From assembly GCA_045605125.1 (NCBI GenBank), contig JAZUPK010000036.1:4945-68944 (forward strand): a stretch of DNA of 64,000 nucleotides. Direction: 5' to 3'. Position 1 is the stretch's first letter; the number at the start of each line of letters is the position of its first letter. Shown one piece after another: positions 3,225 through 41,858 of the stretch. The translations under genes and the position numbers were made by a program. Below the pieces are notes generated by a model. The model ran no database searches and was not told the DNA's origin. It saw nothing but the letters and a program-made list of their open reading frames with translations. This DNA comes from Acutalibacteraceae bacterium. GTDB taxonomy: Bacteria; Bacillota; Clostridia; Oscillospirales; Acutalibacteraceae.

Positions 3225-5261
3225 TTGAAAGACTATTCACAAAATGCCGTACGCAACATTGCTCTTTTAGGACATGGCGGTTCCGGCAAAACAACATTAG
3301 CTGACGCTATTTTATTTTACGGTAAAGCTACTGACCGTATAGGTAAGATTAGTGACAGTACAACCATTATGGACTTTGATGCCGAAGAAAAGAAAAGAAA
3401 AAATTCAGTATCAACTTCGGTTTACTCGCTTGAAATAGGCAATAGTAAACTTAATATTATAGATGCTCCCGGTCTTTTTGACTTTGCAGCCGGCGTTCAC
3501 GAAGCTTTACAGGTAGCCGATAGTGCTATTATTACCATTTCGGGTAAATCCGGTCTTACCGTAGGCGCTAAGCAATGCTTTGAAAAGGCACGTGCTTTAA
3601 ATAAGAGCGTTGCATTCTTTGTAGGTAAGCTTGATTCTACACACGCTCACTTCTACCGCGTATTGTCAGCATTAGCGGGTCAGTATGGTACACTTATATG
3701 CCCTATTATTATTCCTTATATCGAAAACGAACAGGTAAAATGCTACATAAACCTTATCGATAATAAAGCTTACGCTTGCGAAGGCTTAGAGATTAAGGAA
3801 ATGCGTATGCCCGTAAGCGAAGAAATTGACAATATGAGAAGTATGCTATTAGAAGCTATCGCTACCGTCGATGAATCCTTGATGGAAAAATACTTCGCAG
3901 GTGAAGAATTTACCTGTGATGAAATCATACACGGTCTGGCTATAGGTGTTAAAAACGGCGATATTTGCCCGGTATATTGCGGTGTTCAGCAAAGTGGTAA
4001 TGCCGTTCCTATGATGGTGGATAACCTACTTGACATTCTACCCGCTACCGATGCTTGTACATACACTAACGCCGACGGCGAAGAATGTGCCTTTGATGCA
4101 TCGGGCGAGACTGCACTTTGCGTATTTAAGACAATCGCGGACCCGTTTGTTGGCAAGCTTTCATACTTCAAAGTTTTATCAGGTACTGTTAAAAATGATA
4201 TTCAGCTCATCAATAACCGCACCGGCAATAGCGAGCGTATATCTAAAATAATGTGGCTTAAAGCCGCTAAGCAAGAAGATGCAGCTGCTATTACCGCTGG
4301 TGATATTGGCGCAGTTGCTAAGCTTGGTAACGTTATTACAGGCGATACCCTTTCTCAAAAAGGAAATATTGCCATAGCTAAAATCAATTTCCCCAAACCC
4401 ACCTTATCCGTTGCGGTTTACCCCAAGGCTAAAGGTGACGAAGAAAAAATTGCGGGCGCGTTTAACCGTATGGCTGAAGAAGACCCCACCATCACTGTTC
4501 ATACCGACAAGGAAACCAAAGAACTTATACTCTCGGCTTTAGGCGAACAACACATTGATGTAATAATTTCTCGTTTAAAGAGCAAGTTTGGAGCCGAAGC
4601 AGAACTTAAACAGCCAAAAATTGCATACCGTGAAACTATCCGCAAGCCGGTTCAGGTTCAAGGCAGACATAAGAAACAATCGGGTGGTCACGGTCAGTTT
4701 GGTGATGTTTGGATTAAATTTGAACCTTGCGACAGTGAAGAATTAGTATTCTGTGAAGAAGTATTCGGCGGTGCCGTTCCTAAAAACTTCTTCCCTGCAG
4801 TTGAAAAAGGCCTTCGCGATTCAGCCGTTAGCGGCGTATTGGCAGGCTACCCAATGGTAGGACTGAAAGCAACCCTTTACGATGGTTCTTACCACCCGGT
4901 AGACTCTTCCGAAATGTCCTTTAAGATGGCAGCAAGTATCGCTTATAAAGAAGGTATACCGCAAGCATCTCCCGTGCTTTTAGAGCCTATAGGCACCCTT
5001 AAAGTATTAGTTCCTGATGAAATGCTTGGCGATGTTATTGGTGACATCAATAAACGCCGCGGTAGAATTATAGGCATGAATCCAACTGATAACAAAATGC
5101 AAGAAATTATAGGCGAAGTGCCCATTGCCGAAATGTCTGACTTTTCAACCGCAATGCGTTCTATAACTCAAGGAACCGCAACCTTTACTTTAGATATTGA
5201 AAGATACGAAGAAGTACCTGCACAAATTGCAAGCAAGGTTATAGAAGCAAGCAAAAAGTAA
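3225..5261 (+). CDS. elongation factor G paralog (EF-G2-type translational GTPase)
   Basis: TTG start 9 nt after AGGAG. G1 motif GHGGSGKTTL plus DAPG. EF-G domain IV/V blocks HKKQSGGHGQFGDVW and GYPMVGLKATLYDGSYHPVDSSE. G1 differs from the canonical AHIDAGKTT. Confidence 0.8.
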   Translation: MKDYSQNAVRNIALLGHGGSGKTTLADAILFYGKATDRIGKISDSTTIMDFDAEEKKRKNSVSTSVYSLEIGNSKLNIIDAPGLFDFAAGVHEALQVADSAIITISGKSGLTVGAKQCFEKARALNKSVAFFVGKLDSTHAHFYRVLSALAGQYGTLICPIIIPYIENEQVKCYINLIDNKAYACEGLEIKEMRMPVSEEIDNMRSMLLEAIATVDESLMEKYFAGEEFTCDEIIHGLAIGVKNGDICPVYCGVQQSGNAVPMMVDNLLDILPATDACTYTNADGEECAFDASGETALCVFKTIADPFVGKLSYFKVLSGTVKNDIQLINNRTGNSERISKIMWLKAAKQEDAAAITAGDIGAVAKLGNVITGDTLSQKGNIAIAKINFPKPTLSVAVYPKAKGDEEKIAGAFNRMAEEDPTITVHTDKETKELILSALGEQHIDVIISRLKSKFGAEAELKQPKIAYRETIRKPVQVQGRHKKQSGGHGQFGDVWIKFEPCDSEELVFCEEVFGGAVPKNFFPAVEKGLRDSAVSGVLAGYPMVGLKATLYDGSYHPVDSSEMSFKMAASIAYKEGIPQASPVLLEPIGTLKVLVPDEMLGDVIGDINKRRGRIIGMNPTDNKMQEIIGEVPIAEMSDFSTAMRSITQGTATFTLDIERYEEVPAQIASKVIEASKK

Positions 5262-24845: not shown

Positions 24846-25193
24846 TTATTTTGATTTAGCAGTGTTGATAGATGATATAAGCATTACTCTTATACTTGTG
24901 CAAACGGTATCAAGTTGTTTATAAGTAATTTCATCTATATAATTTGTTTTATACAAAAGTTCAAGCCAATAACCTGTTTCATTCGACTCTTTAAGAGCAA
25001 TTTGTAGTTTAGAAATAAAATCTGCTTTCCCGTGCGCATATTGTGCTTCGCGTATATTCGCCCCTATTGAAGTTCCACTCCTACCAATTTGGTTAGAAAT
25101 AATATTTTCTTTTTTCAGTTTTAATTCTTTAACTAAATTTATAATAGAAACCGCAAACTCCAAAGACAAATTTCTCAACTTGCTTTCTGACAT
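24846..25193 (-). CDS. four-helix-bundle protein (23S rRNA intervening-sequence protein / Avd-like family), copy A
   Basis: About 115 aa. Family block RSGTSIGANIREAQYA and YWLELL. ATG at 25193 lies 6 nt after GAGGTG and aligns with the copy B start. The ORF-track start at 25223 would include the predicted -10. Confidence 0.75.
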   Translation of the reverse strand: MSESKLRNLSLEFAVSIINLVKELKLKKENIISNQIGRSGTSIGANIREAQYAHGKADFISKLQIALKESNETGYWLELLYKTNYIDEITYKQLDTVCTSIRVMLISSINTAKSK

Positions 25194-25211
25194 CATAATC
25201 ACCTCTTGCAC

Positions 25212-25240
25212 ATTATATAACATTTATCTGTGAAGTGCAA
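25212..25240 (-). promoter_or_regulatory. sigma-A-type promoter candidate for four-helix-bundle gene A
   Basis: On the - strand: TTGCAC (25240-25235), 17-nt spacer, TATAAT (25217-25212). TATAAT-N-AGAGGTGAT-ATG layout shared with copy B (6 vs 7 nt after TATAAT). Confidence 0.45.
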
Positions 25241-25401
25241 GGCTTCCCCTTGCGTGAAATTATGCTACGCACAATGAAGTATTTGCTTCGCAAAAGTGAA
25301 GTAAAGTGTGCCACTCACGCCCACAGGCGCTTCATGATGTACAACATCGCTTCACGCACCAAAGGTGTACTTATCGTGCCGTAAGGCACACTTAGTTCAC
25401 C
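25230..25401 (+). other. ornate repeat-plus-hairpin array A (candidate structured RNA or ssDNA element, function unknown)
   Basis: GTGAAGT-like 7-9-mers (25230, 25254, 25274, 25296) alternate with short GC-rich hairpins. CTTCAT/CTTCAC/ACTTA complements (25330, 25350, 25370, 25390) alternate with hairpins that include GTGCC[GTAA]GGCAC. Colinear with array B on the + strand. Confidence 0.7.
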
Positions 25402-25403
25402 AA

Positions 25404-25437
25404 ATAAAAAAGACACTCTTTCGAGTGTCTTTTTTAT
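25404..25437. terminator. bidirectional intrinsic terminator (3' of tRNA-Lys on -, 3' of array A on +)
   Basis: AGACACTC-TTTC-GAGTGTCT stem-loop. A-run on one side and T-run on the other. Confidence 0.85.
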
Positions 25438-25438
25438 T

Positions 25439-25514
25439 TGGTGATCCATCGGGGATTCGAACCCCGGACACCTTGATTAAAAGTCAAGTGCTCTACCGTC
25501 TGAGCTAATGAATC
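25439..25514 (-). tRNA. tRNA-Lys (anticodon UUU), CCA encoded
   Basis: The reverse complement folds as a cloverleaf. Acceptor GATTCAT/ATGGATC. D arm GCTC..GAGC. Anticodon arm CTTGA-CTTTTAA-TCAAG. T arm CGGGG-TTCGAAT-CCCCG. 76 nt long. Confidence 0.9.
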
Positions 25515-27510: not shown

Positions 27511-27712
27511 GGCGTTGTACCCGTAAGGATACAACGCCAGTTTTATTCGCCAAGGCGAGTTTTATTGCTACGCAGTGATATTTGAACTTCGTTCAAGTGA
27601 TATTCGCTTCGCGAGTTTAAGGGCGAATAAAATAACACTTAAACCGCAAGGTTTCAATATCACTATTGCCGAAAGGCAATAATATCACTCCAACTTTAGG
27701 AGGAATATAACT
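27511..27712 (+). other. ornate repeat-plus-hairpin array B (candidate structured RNA or ssDNA element, function unknown)
   Basis: 5' hairpin at 27511-38. Then AGTTTTATT x2 and AGTGATATT x2, each followed by a short hairpin (two capped CTTCG). Then GCAA- and GAAA-capped hairpins alternate with AATATCACT x2, the exact reverse complement of AGTGATATT. AATATAACT (27704-12) pairs 8/9 with AGTTTTATT. Confidence 0.75.
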
Positions 27713-27740
27713 TGAAAGTCAGTCTGTTTTTATGTATAAT
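27712..27740 (+). promoter_or_regulatory. sigma-A-type promoter candidate for four-helix-bundle gene B
   Basis: TTGAAA (27712-17), 17-nt spacer, TATAAT (27735-40). Then AGAGGTGAT and ATG at 27760. Confidence 0.5.
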
Positions 27741-27759
27741 AAATTTAGAGGTGATAACT

Positions 27760-28110
27760 ATGGCTGATAGTATTTTAAGAGATAAAGCAAAAGAATTTGC
27801 AAAGAAAGTAGTTTTTCTTTGCCGTGATATGAAAGCAAATCATAAAGAATCGGTTTTAATAAATCAACTACTTCGCTCATCAACCTCGATAGGAGCAAAT
27901 TTGCACGAGGCTCAATACGCTCAAGGAACTAAAGATTTTATTTCAAAACTTGAAATAGCCCAAAAAGAGTGCTACGAAACTGAATATTGGTTAGAACTTC
28001 TTTTTGAGACGGGTTGTATGACCGAAGAAATATACAAAGATATTCAAAACGAATGTGGTTCGATTCGCAGAATGTTGATTTCTTCGCTTAAAACTATAAA
28101 ATCAAAATAA
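27760..28110 (+). CDS. four-helix-bundle protein (23S rRNA intervening-sequence protein / Avd-like family), copy B
   Basis: 116 aa from ATG 27760, which lies 6 nt after GAGGTG. RSSTSIGANLHEAQYA and YWLELL. C-terminus MLISSLKTIKSK parallels copy A. An in-frame TTG at 27712 with an AGGAGG RBS is an alternative start. Confidence 0.75.
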   Translation: MADSILRDKAKEFAKKVVFLCRDMKANHKESVLINQLLRSSTSIGANLHEAQYAQGTKDFISKLEIAQKECYETEYWLELLFETGCMTEEIYKDIQNECGSIRRMLISSLKTIKSK

Positions 28111-28123
28111 GGAGCTTTATATT

Positions 28124-28501
28124 ATGAGTCAAAGAAAAAGATTAGAATATTTGATAATCACTTCTTGTGTATTGTTGTCAGGATTTATCATTTATGGTTT
28201 TGTGGGAAGTATTCAGCCACTAATTAACGATAGTAAAGTCGCTTCGTTTTTTGCATTTGGTGCTTTGGGTGGCTTGGGTTTTAGTCTTATTTTATCAACC
28301 ATAATTTTAAGTTCAAGATTTTTTCAAAAAAGAAGTTTAATATTTAAAATAATTGCGGCTGTTCTTTGGCCTATTACATTTGCTTGTTGTTTTTATGTTG
28401 GTGTTTTTATGTATATCCCCTATGGAATATACAATGTTGTAATGTTGATTAGAAAAGAGCCTCAAGTTGTAGAAAGTTCCGATGACGATTCAAATGAATG
28501 A
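28124..28501 (+). CDS. hypothetical four-TM membrane protein
   Basis: AAGGAG RBS 13 nt after the stop of gene B. Four hydrophobic helices and an acidic C-terminus. No family recognised. Confidence 0.5.
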   Translation: MSQRKRLEYLIITSCVLLSGFIIYGFVGSIQPLINDSKVASFFAFGALGGLGFSLILSTIILSSRFFQKRSLIFKIIAAVLWPITFACCFYVGVFMYIPYGIYNVVMLIRKEPQVVESSDDDSNE

Positions 28502-28610
28502 AAAATACACAATTTTTTATTTAGCTTAGATTAAAGGGTTTTAGGTTCTCCTAAAATGCGGAAAATGTGATATACATTTTCCCTGCTTGTTACGGTATGA
28601 GACAAAAGTA

Positions 28611-28645
28611 AAAGATGCACGAATTTTTTCGTGCATCTTTTTTTT
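28611..28645. terminator. bidirectional intrinsic terminator
   Basis: GATGCACGAA-TTTT-TTCGTGCATC stem-loop, followed by T8 and preceded by an A-run. Sits between convergent genes. Confidence 0.8.
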
Positions 28646-28697
28646 ACTGTCCTTTAGAGTACGACTCAAATTGAGCGGTATTTTAAGTATAATTTTG

Positions 28698-30116
28698 TTA
28701 TTCGCCAAACGGGAAGTTAAATGCGCCACCATTACCTTCATCATCACCAGGTAGTTGCGGTAATGGGGTACTGCTATCCGGTTTTTCTTGTGTGATATAG
28801 CTAGATTCACCAACATTAGCCTTTAATGTTGCCTGTACGGATTTAGATTTACCGCTCGCGTTCACAAAGGTAACCTTAACATTATCCCCTGCTTTTGATT
28901 TTTCAATAATATCAAGCACAATTTCATCATTTGTAACTTCGATACCGTTTATATGGGTTATAATGTCGCCCTTAGTAACCTTTCCTAAAAGGTCACTATC
29001 TTCTGCAACCGAATCAACATAAAGACCTTTATACTTATAGTCCCCAATTTCAGCCGAAACCGAATCGATTGCTCTATAGGTTATACCTAATTTTGCACGG
29101 CTTAAAACCTTACCGTTTTTAATAAGTTCTTCTGCGATGCGCTTAAGAGTAGTAGTGGGAATAGCATAACCCACAGCATCAATATCACTTGACGCTAGCT
29201 TTGAAGAGGTTATACCAATAACCTGACCGTACATATTAACAAGAACACCGCCAGAGCTTCCGGGGTTTATAGGACAGTCGGTCTCGATAAGGCGTGCAGA
29301 ATAGCTTGAAGTAGTTTGTACTCTTCTTGAAGTTGCCGAAATAATACCCTTTGTAACACTTGAGGCGTTTGTAGCACCACCGGGTCTGCCAATAGCTACA
29401 ACATTTTCACCAAAAATAATTTGATTAGAGTTACCGAACACAGCTGTTTTAAAGTTTGCATCTTTAACCTTTAAAACAGCAAGGTCTGATACCTTATCGC
29501 CTGCAACATAACGTGCATCATATTCTTTATTATCATAAGTGTAAATTTTAAACTTTGGAGAAGCAATTTCGGAATAGATGTGGTCGTTGGTTATGATATA
29601 TCCATCATTAGAGTAAATTACACCGCTGGCATTAGCAATCTTACCCGATGCATTATAAACAACAATACCTACAACACTTGCATTTACCTTTTCATAAACC
29701 TGTGCGGCAGTCATTTCATCAGTGTTAGTAGGTTTAGCCTCTAAACCAACTACCGCTTCGCCCTTAGTAAACGATTTTGATACCGAAATTTTACCTAAAT
29801 AGTAGCCACCTGCACACGCTGCCGTTAAAGCGATTACCAAAGCTAATAATAACGCAAAAAATTTAAGACCGCGACTCATAGGTTTTGTTTCCATAGGCTC
29901 TACCTTTGTATAGTTTATAGGGCTGTATGGAATATAAGGTGTTTCTATTTGGGGTTCAGGTTCTACTTCTTCAAACACTTCTTCATCAACTTGAGTATTG
30001 TTTTCTATTGGCTCGCTAGGTTCTAAAACAGGAACTTCTTCTATAGTATTTTCTATTTGTTCTTGTAACTCCTGCTCGTTTTCAGGGGTGCTATTTAAAT
30101 CTTTAAATTCTTCCAT
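28698..30116 (-). CDS. HtrA/DegP-family serine protease with PDZ domain, membrane anchored
   Basis: Catalytic His (TNDHI) and Ser (NPGSSGGVLVN). C-terminal PDZ-like domain. ATG at 30116 lies 1 nt after the kinase stop and is preceded by AAAGGAG. Confidence 0.85.
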   Translation of the reverse strand: MEEFKDLNSTPENEQELQEQIENTIEEVPVLEPSEPIENNTQVDEEVFEEVEPEPQIETPYIPYSPINYTKVEPMETKPMSRGLKFFALLLALVIALTAACAGGYYLGKISVSKSFTKGEAVVGLEAKPTNTDEMTAAQVYEKVNASVVGIVVYNASGKIANASGVIYSNDGYIITNDHIYSEIASPKFKIYTYDNKEYDARYVAGDKVSDLAVLKVKDANFKTAVFGNSNQIIFGENVVAIGRPGGATNASSVTKGIISATSRRVQTTSSYSARLIETDCPINPGSSGGVLVNMYGQVIGITSSKLASSDIDAVGYAIPTTTLKRIAEELIKNGKVLSRAKLGITYRAIDSVSAEIGDYKYKGLYVDSVAEDSDLLGKVTKGDIITHINGIEVTNDEIVLDIIEKSKAGDNVKVTFVNASGKSKSVQATLKANVGESSYITQEKPDSSTPLPQLPGDDEGNGGAFNFPFGE

Positions 30117-41135: not shown

Positions 41136-41858
41136 ATGTATCTTGATATCCATTCACATATTTTATGTGATATTGACGATGGCGCAGAAGATTTATCGAT
41201 ATCTTTGGCGCTTTTAAGCGATGTTTACAATCAAGGCATTACCGATATTGTAGCCACTCCCCACTTCATACCAACTTCCGATAATTTAGAAGAATTTTTA
41301 GAAGACCGACAAAACAGTTTTCTCAAACTGAAAGAAGCTTTAAAAGATACACCCCACCCTAATATTTATTTAGGCTGTGAACTATACTATTATAGTGGTT
41401 TAAGCTATGCTTCCTCTTTAGAAAGCTTTACTATAGAAAACTCTAAATATATTCTTTTAGAACCGAATTACGAGCTTTTAAATGATAAATTTTTAGCTGA
41501 AATTTTACGCTTTAGAAAATTAGGCTTTGAGCCTATACTCGCTCATATTGAGCGTTATAAAAACGCCAAAGGCTTTAGAAAGCTTATTAAATTTATAAAA
41601 GCAAACCACATTTTAACCCAAGTTAATGCTACCGCGTTTTATAATAAAAAATACACAAGGCTAATTAAAAAGCTTTTTAAGGAAGACCTTATTACCTTTG
41701 TCGCTTCTGATACACATTCTATAGATGTGCGTCCACCTATGGTAGGGGGTGCTTTTGAAATAATCGAAGCCGATTACGGTAAGGAATATGTAAATAAACT
41801 AATCGATAATTCGCAAAAGTTACTTTCAAAAATTGCTAAAAAGGAAAATGCAGTATGA
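41136..41858 (+). CDS. PHP-family protein tyrosine phosphatase (CpsB/YwqE-like)
   Basis: DIHSHILCDIDDG N-terminal metal-binding motif. TPH, AHIERY and SDTHS motifs. Confidence 0.85.
   Translation: MYLDIHSHILCDIDDGAEDLSISLALLSDVYNQGITDIVATPHFIPTSDNLEEFLEDRQNSFLKLKEALKDTPHPNIYLGCELYYYSGLSYASSLESFTIENSKYILLEPNYELLNDKFLAEILRFRKLGFEPILAHIERYKNAKGFRKLIKFIKANHILTQVNATAFYNKKYTRLIKKLFKEDLITFVASDTHSIDVRPPMVGGAFEIIEADYGKEYVNKLIDNSQKLLSKIAKKENAV

Follow-up and report, generated by a model that had tools for sequence, protein, structure and literature searches.

The Gut-1 motif (RF01706) was reported from human gut metagenomes only, and was rated as certainly RNA when it was described, without function or gene association (Weinberg et al., 2010; PMC2864571). 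Its seed alignment already holds GUGAUAUU-type arrays, in whose flanks an inverted half is visible (PMC2864571). The Gut-1 consensus consists of four GUGAAAU copies with three intervening hairpins; it has stood in Rfam since 2010 without a function, a gene association or a cultured host, and the literature searched contained no later treatment of it. PF05635 is a very common family of which structures have been solved; to our knowledge, the only role known for it is the one that Avd has in diversity-generating retroelements. The locus described here, which lies in a 64-kb stretch of DNA (the window, meaning the whole stretch analysed), and its at least 80 relatives connect Gut-1 and PF05635 and offer testable features: a two-half Gut-1 dyad, a covarying closing helix, a fixed terminator-promoter polarity and repeat words that track protein clades. 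The dyad, the pairing between first unit and centre, the framing by terminator and promoter, the PF05635 linkage and the array-specific words were not found in the literature searched, and the links to PF05635, to the terminator and promoter and to the closing helix appear to be undescribed before.

A mirror-image pair of Gut-1 motifs in the window

Array B consists of four direct AGTNNTATT nonamers and four inverted AATANNACT nonamers with short G+C-rich hairpins in between (Table 1). A sequence check placed every module of the original prediction at the positions given for it between 27511 and 27712, and a repeat search recovered the direct nonamers as well as the predicted exact 9-bp inverted pairs (27574-82/27681-89 and 27596-604/27656-64), the 11-bp pair (27541-51/27622-32) and the 12-bp hairpin (27511-38). 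One copy had been missed, the fourth of the inverted ones, AATAACACT, and GCTACGC, which had been listed without a fold, is a mini-hairpin too. The window contains 26 matches to AGTNNTATT, against 19 expected, and eight of these are packed into 174 nt of array B, four on the + strand and then four on the - strand, a clustering that is far above chance.

The region had been described as neither promoter-like nor terminator-like, but h0 with the following AGTTTTATT is terminator-like, and a TTGAAA-17-TATAAT promoter adjoins the last nonamer, which abuts the -35 box and is followed by the ribosome-binding site and start codon of gene B. As this promoter lies downstream of the array, array B is not part of the transcript leader of the gene; a 5' UTR or riboswitch of the four-helix gene was rejected on the same ground, the array being upstream of the promoter in other subfamilies as well. 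The supposed UUCG-type CTTCG caps proved to be C(TTC)G triloops in symmetric stems, not cUUCGg tetraloops. Nor do all good loops fall on the + strand, as had been claimed: the left loops TTC, TTAC and TTTC are the reverse complements of the right loops GAA, GTAA and GAAA, and array B is therefore a true dyad.

The array had been assigned to no described class. At the Rfam gathering threshold the window yields tRNA-Lys only, and Gut-1 matches emerge in a permissive scan, in which both halves of array B match Gut-1 over its full length: the left half with 38.1 bits (+ strand, 27538-27608) and the right half with 30.1 bits (- strand, 27627-27713). The promoter-proximal half of array A gives a further full-length match of 39.7 bits (25228-25307, + strand, opposite to the gene), and the E-values of the three matches range from 1e-5 to 3e-3. 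The window copies, at 30-40 bits, do not reach the gathering threshold of 50 bits; related arrays do, since those of the GTGAAAT type upstream of homologous genes score 64-75 bits (+ strand) and their right halves 51-53 bits (- strand), and one B-type array (L013) scores 46.9 bits. Four short-word copies and three alternating hairpins align to model positions 1-77, and the hairpins show compensatory change. Array B and Gut-1 thus have the same build of four words and three covarying hairpins and the same source in gut Clostridia, whereas the Rfam model spans one half only and the window arrays are dyads of two halves. Because the full-length sub-threshold matches go together with relatives above the threshold, we conclude that arrays A and B are divergent members of the Gut-1 class, array B being a divergent, mirror-image pair of this motif, in a known class that lacks an explained function.

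The gene B protein matches the four-helix bundle profiles PF05635 (Pfam) and TIGR02436 (NCBIfam), and the two window proteins score 97 and 92 bits for the former (cut-off 33.8) and 108 and 104 bits for the latter (cut-off 24). The closest solved structure to the gene B protein is 2RLD (E 1.6e-29), an uncharacterised protein with five chains in the structure. Divergent spoIIGA and sigE genes lie upstream of array B and gene B. No array copies or PF05635-related genes other than A and B were found in the 64-kb window, and a hairpin-rich region at 41521, considered as a further array, proved to be coding sequence. As to a defence context, PADLOC gave no matches for the proteins and PHROGs a single marginal one, to a family without an assigned function. 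The 22-bp terminator in the 25397-25514 region takes in the 3' end of tRNA-Lys, and array A begins directly after it. Coupled translationally to gene B is a 125-aa predicted membrane protein (28124-28501) that matches neither Pfam nor NCBIfam and stays with the cassette in three relatives only (L001, L002 and L011).

Table 1. Positions of the two arrays, their parts and their neighbours in the window
Feature	Position	Strand	Remarks
PF05635 gene A	24846-25196	-	53% identical to B
Array A, word GTGAAGT / ACTTCAC	25224-25396	-	architecture and gene-relative polarity as array B
Array A centre pairing AAGTGTGCC:GGCACACTT			
Array A promoter TTGCAC-17-TATAAT	25240-25212		at end of array A
Perfect 22-bp bidirectional terminator of tRNA-Lys(UUU)	25397-25444		role of h0 for array A
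tRNA-Lys(UUU)	25439-25514	-	Rfam at gathering threshold
h0, 12-bp hairpin, then AGTTTTATT	27511-27538	+	terminator-like; left boundary of cassette
Left half-array of B	27539-27613	+	repeat search; Gut-1 match; hairpin covariation
D1	27539-27547		unit of left half-array
h1	27548-27557		unit of left half-array
D2	27558-27566		unit of left half-array
h2	27567-27573		unit of left half-array; GCTACGC
D3	27574-27582		unit of left half-array
h3	27583-27595		unit of left half-array
D4	27596-27604		unit of left half-array
h4	27605-27613		unit of left half-array
Centre of array B	27614-27639	+	degenerate fifth direct copy AGTTTAAGG; GGCGAATAAAA; AATAACACT
GGCGAATAAAA	27622-27632		complement of D1 and 5' arm of h1 (27541-27551)
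First inverted copy AATAACACT	27631-27639		in centre of array B
Right half-array of B	27641-27712	-	second Gut-1-like copy; covariation; GNRA/GAA loops on + strand
h5	27641-27654		unit of right half-array
I2	27656-27664		unit of right half-array
h6	27665-27680		unit of right half-array
I3	27681-27689		unit of right half-array
h7	27690-27703		unit of right half-array
I4	27704-27712		unit of right half-array
Sigma-70-type promoter TTGAAA-17-TATAAT	27712-27740	+	11/12 consensus matches; fused to last inverted repeat
PF05635/TIGR02436 gene B	27747-28110	+	profile search; RBS AGAGGTG 27747-27753, ATG 27760, stop 28108-28110

The cassette and its PF05635 gene

Searching both PF05635 proteins against one genome per species gave 80 loci, all of them in MAGs classified as Clostridia, with animal or human gut samples wherever a host was named. 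Nearly all share one layout, in which a long or terminator hairpin is followed by about four units of word and hairpin, a centre, about four units of hairpin and inverted word, a promoter and the gene; the unit number of the arrays ranges from 3 to 7. The words differ by subfamily (for example AGTNNTATT, AGCTAAATT, GTGAAAT, ATGAATTG, TTGAAAT and GCGAAATT). Each is constant within an array and differs between arrays of the same genome, as in the window (A and B) and in L063, L074, L059 and L049, and where there are two PF05635 paralogues (window A and B; L063) each has its own repeat word. The protein clades are congruent with the word types.

Hairpin, array, promoter and PF05635 gene together form a cassette of ~0.6 kb that occurs at unrelated loci: the flanking genes are unrelated even where the proteins are 94% identical, and the similarity between cassettes of different genomes starts at h0. 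Housekeeping genes of ordinary kinds make up the flanks (119 Pfam families in 122 ORFs). Among these 122 ORFs there is no transposase, integrase, HUH nuclease or reverse transcriptase, and neither an empty site nor a target duplication of the cassette was found. Many of the related arrays follow tRNA genes, and one (L058) follows a tmRNA gene. The gene behind the four-helix gene varies as well, from the small membrane protein of the window to an ion channel, a methyltransferase, a GNAT acetyltransferase, a HAD hydrolase and a zinc ribbon protein.

To count arrays upstream of genes we used hairpin density, as an exact-6-mer array detector missed B-type arrays owing to their variable positions. 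At least five compact hairpins were present in the 260 nt upstream of 64 of 74 PF05635 homologues, compared with 18 of 194 control regions. In a gene-blind sample of 19 hairpin arrays of the GTGAAAT type, picked out of metagenomes by pattern, two had an intact PF05635 gene, one or two a remnant and ~15 none on the contig. The link between gene and array is thus asymmetric, in that PF05635 genes of this clade almost always come with an array and the reverse does not hold; since most gene-blind arrays have no PF05635 gene on their contig, the arrays do not need the gene in cis.

Several arrays depart from the common layout. L063 has, at 1388-1941, another PF05635 paralogue (48% identity with the first) that comes with its own array (word GCGATAT) and lies 1.1 kb from the first cassette, an arrangement that mirrors the two cassettes of the window. 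Extra arrays with the words ACATCATT, AATGATGT and TCGATAT (L074:3551-3693, L059:1408-1580, L049:3359-3533 and ~3600-3800, L081:3343-3507) follow terminators and precede promoters of non-PF05635 genes, which encode uncharacterised proteins and a GtrA-like protein, within 1-2 kb of a PF05635 cassette. Five metagenome contigs (L084, L090, L138, L139 and L170) carry direct-only Gut-1 arrays, in which at least four GTGAAAT copies and hairpins lack an inverted half; they have a common tail, GTGAGCG(C/G)G(G/T)GAGA, except L090 (GTGAACGGGTGAGGTTGTAAGG), and in most of them the tail runs on into TTGTAAAG. In L084, L139 and L170 the direct-only array sits between a CDS stop codon with a GC hairpin and an intrinsic terminator, a 3'UTR-like position, from which we infer that these three are transcribed in the Gut-1 sense.

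Further comparisons bear on the ends and the history of the cassette. Just after the PF05635 stop codon of some B-type cassettes (L010, L012-L019 and L021; for example L013:2849-2905) there is a ~55-nt non-coding element of two hairpins (GGGTTTGGGCTTAGCCC...GCATTTGTACATACAAATGCGATGCTGG), although the next genes differ. It may be the right end of the cassette; no Rfam family matches it, and it folds with a z-score of only -2.2. The near-identical cassettes of two IMG/VR contigs (L205 and L206) differ by deletions whose ends lie in repeated words (CGTGC; GTGAAGCGCC), and units are therefore lost by repeat-mediated slippage or recombination. Between the metagenome contig L001 and the window (27557-28770) identity is mosaic, with 99.4-99.7% at the DNA level in the four-helix and membrane-protein genes, 83% in the array, 87% in the promoter spacer and 78% in the downstream region, which suggests either that the coding block recombined recently or that the array evolves fast.

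Pairing and strand signals across related arrays

In an alignment of 32 distinct B-type arrays (A3), the predicted local hairpins had 34 of 42 pairs changed on both sides (264 cells), and their covariation score was 0.509, compared with 0.160 in shuffles and at most 0.086 in slid controls, which strongly supports the local hairpins as real conserved structures. All nine basal pairs of h0 covary, and its apical part is rich in U.G on the + strand. The pairing that had been offered as an alternative, TTTTATTCGCC:GGCGAATAAAA, was borne out, with 98.4% of positions paired over 12 bp and two pairs changed on both sides in the 32 arrays. The helix between first unit and centre also changes in step across subfamilies (GAAATTTGCCC/GGGCAAATTTC, GAAATAAATCCC/GGGATTTATTTC and GAATTGCGC/GCGCAATTC), and the complementarity of the centre is largely confined to the first unit, where this helix and the local hairpin h1 compete over the same bases. 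These alignments support a conserved pairing of first unit and centre that closes the array structure.

The nested 9-bp helices, proposed to fold into stacked four-way junctions, fared less well. They are paired in 91.7% of cells but show no specific covariation in one register, and the 91.7% is uninformative because the flanks of the nonamers are invariant. For two of the three helices, pairing at both variable central positions is absent from 25-56% of sequences, and in the third helix one position is unpaired in 2 and the other in 11 of 32; a shifted register pairs 89.3% of cells, near the original value, and the common second-copy variant AGTTCTATT is complemented by no inverted copy. A test of whether the variable NN of each direct nonamer follows any single inverted partner gave only a broad, non-specific association. 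A ladder of nested helices is possible, with weak and register-unspecific support. Kissing loops between left and right hairpins were dropped as a candidate, since close relatives alter one loop and leave the other unchanged.

Thermodynamic folding does not distinguish between these models, because the minimum-free-energy structures vary between loci and both strands are equally foldable as RNA or DNA. For array B, the folding energies against shuffled sequences correspond to z-scores of -6.7 and -6.3 as RNA and of -6.9 and -7.0 as DNA, for the two strands.

As to the strand and the kind of nucleic acid on which this structure would act, the dyad arrays start right after the T-run of a terminator and run up to a promoter directed away from them; in every subfamily examined this promoter is fused to the last unit, and in B-type arrays it is conserved. 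This placement between terminator and promoter argues against an array promoter of the array's own, and neither inspection by eye nor a promoter scan gave a convincing promoter for an array transcript that starts in the centre or comes from the right on the - strand. The array stems contain 1258 Watson-Crick pairs against 23 G.T and 10 A.C, and wobble pairs make up ~1-2%, compared with 5% in the adjoining terminator hairpin h0. Among the loops, triloops rather than UNCG or GNRA are the most frequent type, with C(TTC)G in the left half and C(GAA)G in the right. The almost pure Watson-Crick stems, the triloops, the loop symmetry and the framing by terminator and promoter speak in favour of a constraint on two strands or at the DNA level. 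In favour of RNA are the transcribed direct-only arrays and, in the right half read on the + strand, the presence of GNRA loops and an excess of G.U over A.C of 16 to 4. We regard RNA and structured DNA as having roughly even chances of being the bound form.

Readings of the array and known systems

The best explanation, which we put forward tentatively from the sequence comparisons, is that the array may serve as a multivalent binding scaffold for a pentameric PF05635 protein, the product of the adjacent gene. The repeated words would be putative binding sites and the hairpins rigid spacers, the two together forming a multivalent platform for an oligomeric reader. The likeliest candidate for this reader is the homopentameric PF05635 product of the neighbouring gene, each paralogue recognising the word of its own array. 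Bound beside the -35 box, the protein would be able to regulate the promoter from which it is expressed and, with it, the variable genes that are transcribed downstream. The protein might bind the array as RNA, in a read-through transcript of the Gut-1 sense, or as DNA, with the hairpins extruded upstream of the active promoter. A cognate reader is suggested by the word itself, because it is uniform in an array, differs within a genome and tracks the adjacent paralogue. Reading by a pentamer is suggested because the closest structure, 2RLD, has five chains and because Xcc0516 is described as five four-helix bundles in work cited in PMC3936711. Single-stranded structure appears relevant since the hairpins covary strongly and the first unit pairs with the centre in a conserved manner. 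Membership in Gut-1, the excess of hairpins upstream of PF05635 homologues over controls, the fusion of the promoter to the last unit and the spread of the cassette over unrelated loci also count in favour of this reading.

The main weakness of a PF05635 reader is the many arrays that lack the gene. Some arrays, moreover, precede other genes, arrays have between 3 and 7 units rather than a constant five, and simple co-inheritance would likewise produce congruence of clades and words. Binding to duplex DNA would leave the hairpins without an explanation, and binding to single-stranded RNA would do the same for the inverted half on the same transcript. If PF05635 does not bind, the array still belongs, as a well-defined member, to a motif class that lacks an explanation.

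Three other explanations compete with binding by PF05635. The array could, as the original prediction and Rfam take it, be a structured RNA of the + strand that arises from a read-through or independent transcript and works independently of protein, its hairpins and long-range helices (ladder or pseudoknot) serving as a small RNA, stabiliser, processing site or insulator, which we consider possible, if rather doubtful. Hairpin covariation, the rating of Gut-1 as certainly RNA by the Rfam curators, the position of the three direct-only arrays that places them on a transcript of the Gut-1 sense, the right-half GNRA loops with their G.U excess and a long-range pairing that requires a single strand all fit such an RNA; against it, the dyad arrays follow a terminator T-run with no room for a promoter while the end promoter fires away, wobble is rarer in their stems than in the neighbouring terminator hairpin, triloops prevail over UNCG and GNRA, left and right loops are reverse-complementary, and neither the constant word of each array nor the nested helices without specific covariation are accounted for. 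With a logic likened to that of REP/REPIN, attC and the ends of IS200/IS605, the dyad could alternatively fold as single-stranded DNA or a cruciform and be a site of recombination, insertion or maintenance that moves the cassette or forms a landing pad by terminators. We judge this unlikely, notwithstanding that the dyad symmetry includes the loops, that the stems are almost purely Watson-Crick, that transcription is not expected in the gap between terminator and promoter, that cassettes lie at unrelated loci, often directly after tRNA or tmRNA terminators, that solo arrays occur alongside gene-linked ones and that units are lost by repeat-mediated deletion. The C(GAA)G and C(TTC)G triloops would also suit DNA, in which d(GCGAAGC)-type minihairpins are exceptionally stable. 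Such a DNA site is opposed by the absence of transposase, integrase, HUH nuclease and reverse transcriptase from the 122 flanking ORFs, by the low copy number and divergent sequences of the arrays within one genome, by hairpins too short for unaided extrusion, by the 3'UTR-like positions of direct-only arrays and by the failure to find an empty site or target duplication.

The hairpin stacks might, finally, act as a passive bidirectional insulator that meets polymerases arriving from both sides and so protects the cassette promoter against those reading through from strong units upstream, such as tRNA genes. The array always lies between terminator and promoter, transcription entering from either side would read the half that it meets in the Gut-1 sense, and tRNA or tmRNA neighbours are frequent; U-runs, however, follow only h0 and h1, and insulation would explain neither the array-specific conserved word and the pairing of first unit and centre nor the direct-only arrays upstream of terminators, and we hold it to be very unlikely. 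Taking binding by PF05635 further, pentamers and their cognate arrays could make up an 'addressed' protein-nucleic-acid system, in which each paralogue has its own 7-9-nt word four to five times and a minimal mobile cassette of ~0.6 kb settles beside terminators or other stable hairpins. This extension is quite improbable; if true, it would account for the presence of PF05635 in rRNA intervening sequences and cas loci and beside genes for tRNA and tmRNA.

Of the known systems with palindromic or repeated units, several were compared and rejected. REP/BIME/REPIN elements resemble the array as intergenic palindromic units of alternating orientation after gene 3' ends or terminators, but in REP the palindrome is conserved, in high copy and linked to RAYT, whereas in the array the hairpin sequence is free and the linker word conserved; REP/BIME was rejected as there are only two arrays in 64 kb, the hairpin sequences vary freely and the flanks contain no transposase or RAYT. 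An integron attC site consists of one imperfect hairpin at the 3' end of the ORF in a cassette and is accompanied by a neighbouring integron integrase, unlike an array that lies 5' of the gene with multiple hairpins and no integrase in the 122 flanking ORFs. Type III toxin-antitoxin loci (ToxI) have ~36-nt tandem repeats, a terminator and an endoribonuclease toxin gene, and were rejected in view of ~20-nt units, a promoter and not a terminator before the gene and no PADLOC match. Membership of the array in CRISPR was rejected as well. The inverted nonamer has what we take to be a resemblance to the origin nonanucleotides of HUH nucleases and to the phiX174 origin, and TATCACT presumably resembles the omega-protein heptads; neither likeness bears any weight.

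Closer comparisons are functional. Avd of diversity-generating retroelements, a relative of PF05635, is a pentameric four-helix bundle that works with a structured nucleic acid partner, and the cassette protein would be like it in combining such a bundle with structured nucleic acid; a retroelement itself was rejected, as no reverse transcriptase family occurs in the 122 flanking ORFs and no template or variable repeats lie near the cassettes, and around 24-31 kb of the window we found no RT-like match and two PF05635 genes only. ParR-parC and the omega-protein heptads place direct or inverted short repeats at the promoter of the gene for a small oligomeric autoregulator, and the array likewise has short direct and inverted repeats by the promoter of a gene for a small oligomeric protein, but in those systems the duplex sites are contiguous, with no covarying hairpins as spacers, and the proteins are ribbon-helix-helix dimers. 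CsrB/RsmZ sponges and the TRAP-binding trp leader carry repeated short motifs on or between hairpins for an oligomeric protein. The array shares with them repeats presented with hairpins, a comparison of function and not of membership, and differs in that its motif is array-specific and not genome-wide, it has an inverted half, it lies upstream of a promoter and its binding is putative.
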